IMG/VR virus record: IMGVR_UViG_3300010278_000003
Source of the DNA: a virus
Direction: 5' to 3' (one strand)
DNA length: 64,000 nucleotides
Both the position numbers and the translations under genes were made by a program. The notes beneath the pieces are model-generated. The model saw nothing but the letters and a program-made list of their open reading frames with translations, ran no database searches and was not told where the DNA came from. Position 1 is the stretch's first letter, and every line of letters starts with the position of its first letter. Below, piece by piece: positions 22,301-23,203 of this stretch.

Positions 22301-23135
22301 AGATATTCTTTCTCAGTTTCAAGAAGGGTAGAATTATAATCTTGAAGTTTTTGTTTGGACTTATCTATGTCGTTTTTATAAAGATTAGCAGCAAACGTAT
22401 TACCTGCATCTGCCATTTCTTGGGCAGCTTTGGTATAAGTATCTAACTGTTTTTCTACTCTTTCGATATGAAACATAGTATTTCCATATTTTTGAGCACT
22501 TTTACCGACCTTGCTACTTCCAGATTTACTACTAATTACACCTTCGTTTAAAAGACCGCCTCTACCATACAGTTCGTTCTCGGCTAATTTCTTTTGTTCC
22601 TGCTCATAAATCTTTTGATCAAGTTCAAGTCTTTGTTGTAAATAATCTAAACGAGATTGTTCCGCTTCAGTTAATCCACCTTCATCACGAAGAGCAAGAA
22701 GCTTTTTCTCTTCTTCTTCAAGAGATGATATTTCGGATGAAAGATTGTCAACTATCTCTTGCTGTTCTTCAAGAGTAACATTCAGTTTATCCCAAACCCA
22801 CATACCTGCTTTAATAGCTAAATTAACTGCAAGCATAATACCTATGTTTTTAGCTGCATCTAATGCTGCTTTGCCAAATTTAGCGAATTTGTCGGATGAA
22901 GCACCAATAAATGAAGCATATTGTTCTGCTACATCCTTAGAATAATCACAAGTATTAGTAAACTTTGTTAATTCACCATCTGCGAGTTCAAAATCTTTTG
23001 CAAATTCTAATATTTCACCTTCATTATTAAAAATTTTTCCTTGTAAGGCTTCAAGAAAATTACTTTGATTTTCTGTCAGTTTTTTAAAGAATGAGCTAAA
23101 TATTGTACTCCAACCATTTTCGCCATGATTGACAA
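16396..23135 (-). CDS. Tape measure protein, 3' exon
   Basis: The frame of ORF 16396-22836 stays open to 23157 with no ATG and no clear RBS; coiled coils and a C-terminal HAKGT motif. Confidence 0.8.
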
Positions 23136-23157
23136 CGTTGTTATAAAATGGTATATT
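23129..23157 (+). promoter_or_regulatory. Sigma-A-type promoter for the intron cargo, overlapping the 3' splice site
   Basis: TTGACA (23129-23134), 17-nt spacer ending in an extended-10 TG, TATATT (23152-23157); RBS AGGAGG and ATG 23204 follow. Confidence 0.7.
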
Positions 23158-23203
23158 TTAGTTAATCACTTGAGTTAAATAACCTAAATTAGGAGGGAAT
23201 ATT

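Follow-up and report, generated by a model that had tools for sequence, protein, structure and literature searches.

I-DirII of Didymium iridis is encoded in antisense within a group I intron and is expressed from its own promoter (reviewed in PMC3073962). IStrons combine a group I intron with an IS200/IS605 element (PMC4227781; 10.1101/2023.11.20.567912; PMC13521648), and Cluster J mycobacteriophages have group I introns in capsid and tail genes (PMC3706429). Here we describe a phage locus that resembles these systems in part. It lies in a 64,000-nucleotide (nt) stretch of viral DNA (IMG/VR record IMGVR_UViG_3300010278_000003; the whole stretch is called the window below), in which the tape-measure gene, on the minus strand, appears to be interrupted by a group-I-type intron. 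A gene for a zinc-ribbon protein sits inside this putative intron on the opposite strand, and the sequence in front of it is probably a genuine extended -10 promoter of the sigma-70/sigma-A type that would drive the gene. The locus is like I-DirII in that a protein gene appears to lie within a group I intron, on the strand opposite the host gene and with a dedicated promoter. It is like IStrons in its order, a 5' ribozyme core followed by kilobases of cargo before the 3' splice site, and in having overlapping functions at the 3' end. As with the Cluster J introns, the predicted intron is of the self-splicing type and interrupts a late virion gene.

We found that the plus strand at the predicted 3' end of the intron contains every part of an extended -10 promoter. 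An earlier note on this DNA, made from its letters alone, had listed TTGACA, a 17-nt spacer, an extended -10 TG, TATATT, AGGAGG and an ATG at 23204. Direct reading and a scan for the consensus placed each of these parts exactly where it had been claimed to be:

23129-23134, plus strand: -35 hexamer TTGACA, 6/6 consensus matches (direct reading and consensus scan)
23135-23151, plus strand: 17-nt spacer whose last three bases are TG-G, with the TG at 23149-23150 (direct reading and consensus scan)
23152-23157, plus strand: -10 hexamer TATATT, 5/6 consensus matches, in the 3' tail of the putative intron
23163-23166, plus strand: predicted transcription start of the antisense operon, placed solely from the position of the -10 box
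23191-23196, plus strand: Shine-Dalgarno sequence AGGAGG, 7 nt ahead of ATG 23204
23204-23743, plus strand: conserved antisense gene of the intron family, encoding a 179-amino-acid (aa) double zinc-ribbon protein

Firmicute sigma-A promoters of the extended -10 (TGn) class have a TTGACA-like -35 box, a spacing of 17 bp and, like the -16 region of Gram-positive promoters, a purine just ahead of the TG. The window sequence has near-consensus hexamers, a 17-nt spacing (16-18 bp in the sigma-70/sigma-A extended -10 class) and a TG one base before the -10 box. A purine precedes the TG in the promoter copies, in agreement with the 'RTG' of the -16 region. The class is further defined by a downstream gene with a ribosome-binding site and by an architecture that is kept in homologues, and both were found here. 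The -10 box and ATG 23204 are separated by 46 nt, and the strong Shine-Dalgarno sequence lies in that interval. The gene starting at ATG 23204 is the first of the sole plus-strand cluster within an otherwise minus-strand region. Because it is the first gene to face away from the late operon, it needs a promoter of its own.

Such sequences are rare in the window. The sequence at 23129-23157 ranked first among the 37 promoter-like sites that the consensus scan returned between 22000 and 27500. Matches of at least 11/12 occurred at six sites in the whole window (both strands, 128 kb scanned), and only the site at 23129-23157 had the TG extension. No comparable alternative site was seen between exon 2 of the tape-measure gene and ATG 23204. 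The sole 12/12 match in the window, TTGACA-16-TATAAT at 15938-15965 (plus strand), is likewise antisense to the tail operon.

We found that the tape-measure gene is split into two frames that can be joined in frame. Two long minus-strand frames bracket the plus-strand cluster; the first (26523-30431) contains a PF10145 domain and the second runs from 23157 down to 16396. The parts of the gene, as we read them, are:

26570-30431, minus strand: tape-measure exon 1, carrying the PF10145 domain
23136-26569, minus strand: intervening sequence of 3,434 nt with group-I topology; first intron nt 26569, omega-G (the intron's terminal G) 23136
16396-23135, minus strand: tape-measure exon 2; frame open from 23157, first ATG at 22836, 107 codons in

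The same order was seen in every closer relative fetched: the PF10145 frame, 400-500 nt of noncoding sequence, variable genes, the antisense zinc-ribbon gene and the second frame. In the smallest versions (loci L003-L005) the noncoding block and the antisense gene are alone, and the insertion is ~1 kb in total. The first frame diverges between relatives right after a common ..AGAKGxx and stops at variable distances; beyond this point the nucleotide similarity persists while the reading frames differ. The second frame opens with a common nucleotide motif, ..CG|(U/A)UGU(A/C)AA... These two boundaries correspond to 26570|26569 and 23136|23135 in the window. They gave in-frame junctions in 6/6 loci that have both ends, with introns of 3,434, 3,382, 9,003, 2,075, 5,239 and 2,006 nt. 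Exon 2 starts at 23135 with UUGUCAAU... and has neither a start codon nor a Shine-Dalgarno sequence across its conserved first 107 codons. The ligated product predicted for the window, ..AGAKGYG-L-VNHGENGW.., is colinear across the junction with an uninterrupted IMG/VR tape measure (L019), which reads ..AYKGMGVKDVGH... In distant tape measures, too, both halves are fused in one protein in the same order. The earlier note had the gene interrupted and its 3' junction inside the promoter, and the conserved G at 23136, with exon 2 from 23135, bears this out. We infer from these sequences that the intron would be spliced to yield ligated tape-measure exons, and that the spliced gene would encode a protein of 3,533 aa.

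A different placement of the splice sites (5' GGU| or UU|AAC; 3' AAG|C) was considered and dropped; the window has A, not G, at that place, and a U.G pair and a contiguous P10 helix fit one nucleotide away instead. The head of exon 2 was absent from 120 long tape measures retrieved with the tail of exon 1, and these were of no help in placing the junction.

The promoter, as proposed, would span this junction, with the TG and -10 box in the last 21 nt of the intron, the omega-G in the spacer and the -35 box in exon 2. The earlier note had made the same assignments, and the coordinates agree with them. The -35 box corresponds to exon-2 nt +2 to +7. Its complement, UGUCAA, contains GUC AAU (Val-Asn), the first two full codons of exon 2, and is also part of the exon strand of P10, the helix between exon 2 and the intron's guide. 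The spacer contains the first exon-2 nt (23135) and, as its second base, the complement of the omega-G (23136); the TG and -10 box lie 13-21 nt inside the intron. The claim that about 30 bp serve four functions had to be reduced, as only ~8 bp (23129-23136) combine coding, P10 helix, splice signal and promoter. Since the antisense gene is only ~68 nt from the junction, its promoter has to reach across it. The promoter constrains this stretch at the DNA level and splicing constrains it at the RNA level, and no single molecule is subject to both processes; only head-on transcription inside the intron would bring them together.

We found that this arrangement is kept in relatives. Six more copies from gut metagenomes were retrieved with an exact 24-nt word from the noncoding block, and relatives in IMG/VR were found by a profile scan. 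Scans of IMG/VR with a single sequence or a core word gave no relatives, and searches of GenBank phages gave no match for 22000-27600 (megablast) or for the exon-2 head (tblastn). The earlier note had proposed conservation of both boxes in homologues as a check. Both boxes are kept in nine further copies, from eight loci and seven diverged lineages. Read on the antisense strand, from exon 2 toward the zinc-ribbon gene, the copies are:

Window and L001: -35 TTGACA; TGgTATATT
L006: -35 TTTACA; TGaTAACAT
L006, second internal copy: -35 TTTACA; TGtTATAAT
L008: -35 TTTACA; TGgTATAAT
L009: -35 TTTACA; TGaTATACT
L014: -35 TTTACA; TGaTACAAT
L017: -35 TTTACA; TGtTATAAT
L020/L021: -35 TTTACA; TGaTATAAT

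The shared pattern is TT[G/T]ACA, a 17-nt spacer ending in TGn, TAnnnT, 10-14 nt, CTTGRR, a Shine-Dalgarno sequence and ATG. Only the initial ACG and the final TGn of the spacer are common to the lineages, and its length is exactly 17 nt throughout. In 8/9 of the other copies the third position of the Val codon, which differs in the window (GUC), leaves the -35 box at 5 or 6/6 matches. In the more distant loci with the promoter, exon 2 is 27-34% identical to that of the window.

The promoter-like motif might be a by-product, with TTGACA forced by the Val-Asn codons and P10, TATATT an AT-rich accident, and the gene transcribed from elsewhere or never. The window is AT-rich, and the 37 sites in the 5.5 kb scanned, mostly weak, exceed the 28 expected. 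The -35 box is also under the two other constraints just named. However, nine further copies keep TGn and TAnnnT at precisely the 17-nt distance from the -35 box while other spacer bases change, and the internal copy of L006 keeps the architecture with a different spacer. The small number of sites with at least 11/12 matches and the lack of a comparable site between exon 2 and the ATG also argue against a by-product, which we regard as improbable. A genuine promoter is the likelier source of the motif.

To place the splice junction at the RNA level, we considered the pairing potential of the intervening sequence and of its relatives. The elements assigned are:

26131-26569, minus strand: ribozyme-like core with P1 guide, P2, P3/P7 pseudoknot, P4-P6, P8 and P9, ending with the closing-helix strand ACUUGGGA (26131-26138)
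26537-26553, minus strand: internal guide, with GUCAUGGUUACAA (26541-26553) opposite exon-2 nt 1 to 12-14 for P10 and ACCC (26537-26540) opposite exon-1 GGGC (26570-26573) for P1
23122-23135, minus strand: exon strand of P10, UUGUCAAUCAUGGC; free energy (dG) -13.4, reached by 4/1000 shuffles
23168-23174, minus strand: 3' strand of the closing helix, CUCAAGU in the window; the plus-strand side is the 5' untranslated region of the antisense gene

A guide segment, located 17-33 nt inside the intervening sequence, pairs with exon 2 over its first 12-16 nt and leads without a break into 3-5 pairs with the end of exon 1; P10 adjoins P1, as in a group I internal guide. P10 is 13 bp long in the window and 12-13 bp across the loci tested. 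Its dG is -12.5 to -16.5, a value reached by at most 4/1000 shuffles in each of six loci, and cognate pairs generally outperform cross-lineage pairs. At the 5' splice site seven sequences have a U.G pair, whereas the window and L001 have C.A in the same column (pair 14-49). The neighbouring pair in P1, 13-50, covaries between AU and GC. All loci of the lineage keep the omega-G in front of (U/A)UGU...

Helices P2 to P9 could be placed in group I order, including the P3/P7 pseudoknot, on nine sequences. In this structure 97.9% of cells were paired, compared to 34-44% when the partners were slid by 1-3 columns, and compensatory changes were found in 29 pairs, compared to 1-5 when slid. Because many of the invariant pairs are G.U, the RNA could be placed on the tape-measure strand. 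A group II intron was considered and rejected; there is no GUGYG...AY, and the antisense gene, only 68 nt from the junction, leaves no room for domains V and VI.

Several observations weigh against a promoter laid over a group I splice junction. The group I structure was drawn from the same nine sequences that were used to test it, and these represent about three lineages. The C.A pair in place of the canonical U.G makes the efficiency of splicing uncertain for the window and L001. Rfam gave no group I (RF00028) or group II match in the whole window at the gathering score, in 22800-26800 and 26050-26600 at E<=10, or on L001 and L002 at E<=1; the intron is therefore argued from comparative structure instead. 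At the junction, L010 has only TTGCAA-17-TACATT, and a better site is found inside its intron. In the sister lineage L003-L005 the same antisense gene is preceded by TTCCAA-17-TGgTATAAT, which is wholly intronic and ~24 nt from the predicted splice site, so the overlap is conserved within one lineage of the family and is not obligatory. Since the -35 box is also held by Val-Asn coding and P10, less weight attaches to its conservation than to that of the TG and -10 box, and the latter could in principle be an RNA element of the intron tail.

If there were no splicing, the locus would hold two genes for two tape-measure proteins, the 3.4 kb between them would be an ordinary accessory island, and the promoter would merely overlap the start of the second gene. 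Most exon-2 homologues in databases are indeed called as separate proteins starting at residue 1-60, and both the missing Rfam match and the missing U.G pair of the window fit this explanation. In contrast, the noncoding core and the antisense gene were also present upstream of those separately called homologues that we examined, no start is available within the conserved first 107 codons of exon 2, and uninterrupted homologues are colinear across the junction. A covarying guide that aligns both exon ends, the conserved G before the junction and a core with compensatory changes would also be difficult to account for. We consider two separate genes to be quite unlikely, and favor an intron.

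The -10 region, as the complement of TGnTAnnnT, might instead be a conserved A-U-rich element with a CA that serves the intron RNA, perhaps by docking its 3' tail onto the core, with only a resemblance to a -10 box. It is 16-24 nt upstream of the omega-G, in the short 3' tail, which has to extend as far as the catalytic core, and in the window core nt 26106-26121 are a possible pairing partner. The earlier note had described this pairing as a clamp. The clamp (26106-26121 with 23140-23155) was obtained for the window by cofolding and for L001, a 95% relative, by eye with one U.G pair. It does not hold as a general element, since it was not found in other lineages and since cofolding gives that pairing in the window alone. 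What is conserved in all lineages is the helix that closes the cargo loop, in which CUUGGRA at the end of the core pairs with UYCCAAG (26131-26137 with 23168-23174 in the window; one pair is G.U in the window and G-C in L001). Its 3' strand, at 23168-23174, is downstream of the -10 box and outside the spacer. The A-U-rich element also matches the sigma-A consensus, including the -16 'RTG', and its spacing is kept to the -35 box and not to features near the omega-G. An RNA element in place of the -10 box thus seems very unlikely, and we retain the promoter.

Other RNA elements were seen at the locus. The splice nucleotide can also pair with guide column 34 in a local hairpin, which covaries as well and may be a second conformation. 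A further covarying helix joins exon-1 bases, from the Gly codon of GAKG, to the strand before P2 (26573-26581 with 26476-26484 in the window). Compensatory changes were found in 4/8 of its pairs, and the strand overlaps a possible CUUG/CAAG alternative near P3. Further upstream, another intron-like RNA interrupts the PF10145 domain in L002 (4640-6577) and L006 (150-680) and contains a classic ..UCAACGACUA.. element; it gave no Rfam match either. The L002 copy carries a 427-aa DUF4379 open reading frame (ORF), and the rest of the domain is a separate 259-aa frame.

We found a second copy of the junction within the 9-kb intron of L006. At 6560-6740, on the tape-measure strand, L006 has a second zinc-ribbon gene with the same promoter architecture and ..GCG|AUGUAAA.., followed by ~16 codons that resemble the start of exon 2 (VNYNEDNSWTIIPSF*). 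It resembles a duplicate of the 3' junction cassette, or else a 3' splice site for alternative use. Two zinc-ribbon genes are also present in L014. The internal L006 copy bears on a further suggestion, that the zinc-ribbon gene, the promoter and the ..CG|UUGUAAAC.. junction form a persistent unit of the intron family that supplies the 3' splice site while cargo accumulates beside it, and that head-on firing of the promoter acts as a switch coupling host-sigma activity to tape-measure production. The internal copy in L006, with its 16 pseudo-exon codons, supports a cassette that behaves as a unit. We consider this combined proposal, with its switch, unlikely.

The zinc-ribbon gene is the constant part of the cargo. 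It was the antisense neighbour of exon 2 in 16/21 fetched loci, and this constancy in position and orientation suggests that it is part of the element and not of the variable cargo. The protein has a conserved C-terminal motif, ..PKCPKCGS...GFIGAG..TVNRCG.CGYKWKP. Its matches were limited to zinc-ribbon families of a generic kind, which stayed below the cutoffs, to PHROG 2546 (unknown function) and to clusters of viral hypothetical proteins (Atlas). A match to the Cas12f1-like TNB domain was weak and sub-threshold (20 bits; cutoff 26), and the AlphaFold model (pLDDT 54) was too poor for a structure search. An IMG/VR relative, L015, has a zinc-ribbon homologue in sense orientation upstream of the exon-2 homologue (3442-3873, plus strand).

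If the promoter functions as proposed, the housekeeping sigma-70/sigma-A holoenzyme would start near 23164 and read the zinc-ribbon gene and probably the next two genes on the plus strand:

23785-24153 and 24197-24475, plus strand: two further ORFs, separated by short gaps, with no family matches

These two ORFs are probably co-transcribed from the same promoter. Among the cargo ORFs tested there was no LAGLIDADG, GIY-YIG, HNH, His-Cys box or PD-(D/E)xK family (Pfam, PHROG, NCBIfam), and no IS200/IS605 transposase or TnpB. The cargo of L006 and L014 includes genes for a PemK-type toxin, Bro-N/ANT and NYN/PIN proteins; the cargo is highly variable and the zinc-ribbon gene constant. A small XRE-type helix-turn-helix gene lies just past the ribozyme core, in the sense direction, in two diverged relatives (window 25781-25981, minus strand; L002 7740-7980, plus strand).

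The earlier note had assigned the promoter to lysogeny. A tyrosine recombinase gene (PF00589; 47271-48305, minus strand) beside two tRNA genes (46824-46973) is the window's only hint of an integrative lifestyle. Together with the SPbeta-like tail gene families found in relatives, it makes lysogeny plausible. Neither the core word nor a relative of exon 2 was found in ~186,000 representative bacterial genomes. Expression specifically in lysogeny is possible, and we consider it doubtful. A consensus-like promoter for the housekeeping sigma should be usable whenever host holoenzyme is free, which might be the case in a lysogen or soon after infection begins. Elsewhere in the window, a skipping-rope RNA (RF02924) was found at 2821-2901 (minus strand; 73.7 bits).

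If the promoter fires, ~8 bp would be read in four ways: as Val-Asn codons, as a strand of the exon-aligning helix, as the neighbour of the splice-site G and as the -35 box of the opposite strand. This arrangement has been held through deep divergence in a family of gut phages with very long tails, and it offers a natural test case for the evolution of overlapping codes. An active promoter would also indicate that group I introns of the bacterial type can accommodate antisense genes with transcription of their own, and as much as 9 kb of cargo. Its transcription would run head-on into late transcription through the intron, which could matter for the yield of the tape-measure protein. Such opposition to an essential late gene suggests a possible regulatory link between expression of the accessory genes and tail assembly.

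In a full-text literature search we found no account of an opposite-strand promoter of the bacterial type that spans a group I 3' splice site, or of the zinc-ribbon cassette. The Cluster J introns are short, and either have no ORF or have a homing endonuclease on the sense strand; an antisense operon or a promoter spanning a splice site is not described there (PMC3706429). The I-DirII gene lies in eukaryotic rDNA, encodes a homing endonuclease and uses a Pol II promoter. In contrast, the gene here is a phage zinc-ribbon gene, and its predicted promoter, a bacterial one of the sigma-70/sigma-A type, reaches out of the intron into the downstream exon and P10. Unlike IStrons, the locus has no transposase or TnpB in the cargo ORFs tested. 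The overlap in IStrons is between two RNA functions, the omega-RNA and the splice site, whereas here one of the two functions would be a DNA promoter on the opposite strand. Compared to extended -10 promoters of Firmicutes, the putative promoter is itself ordinary, and only its location is unusual.
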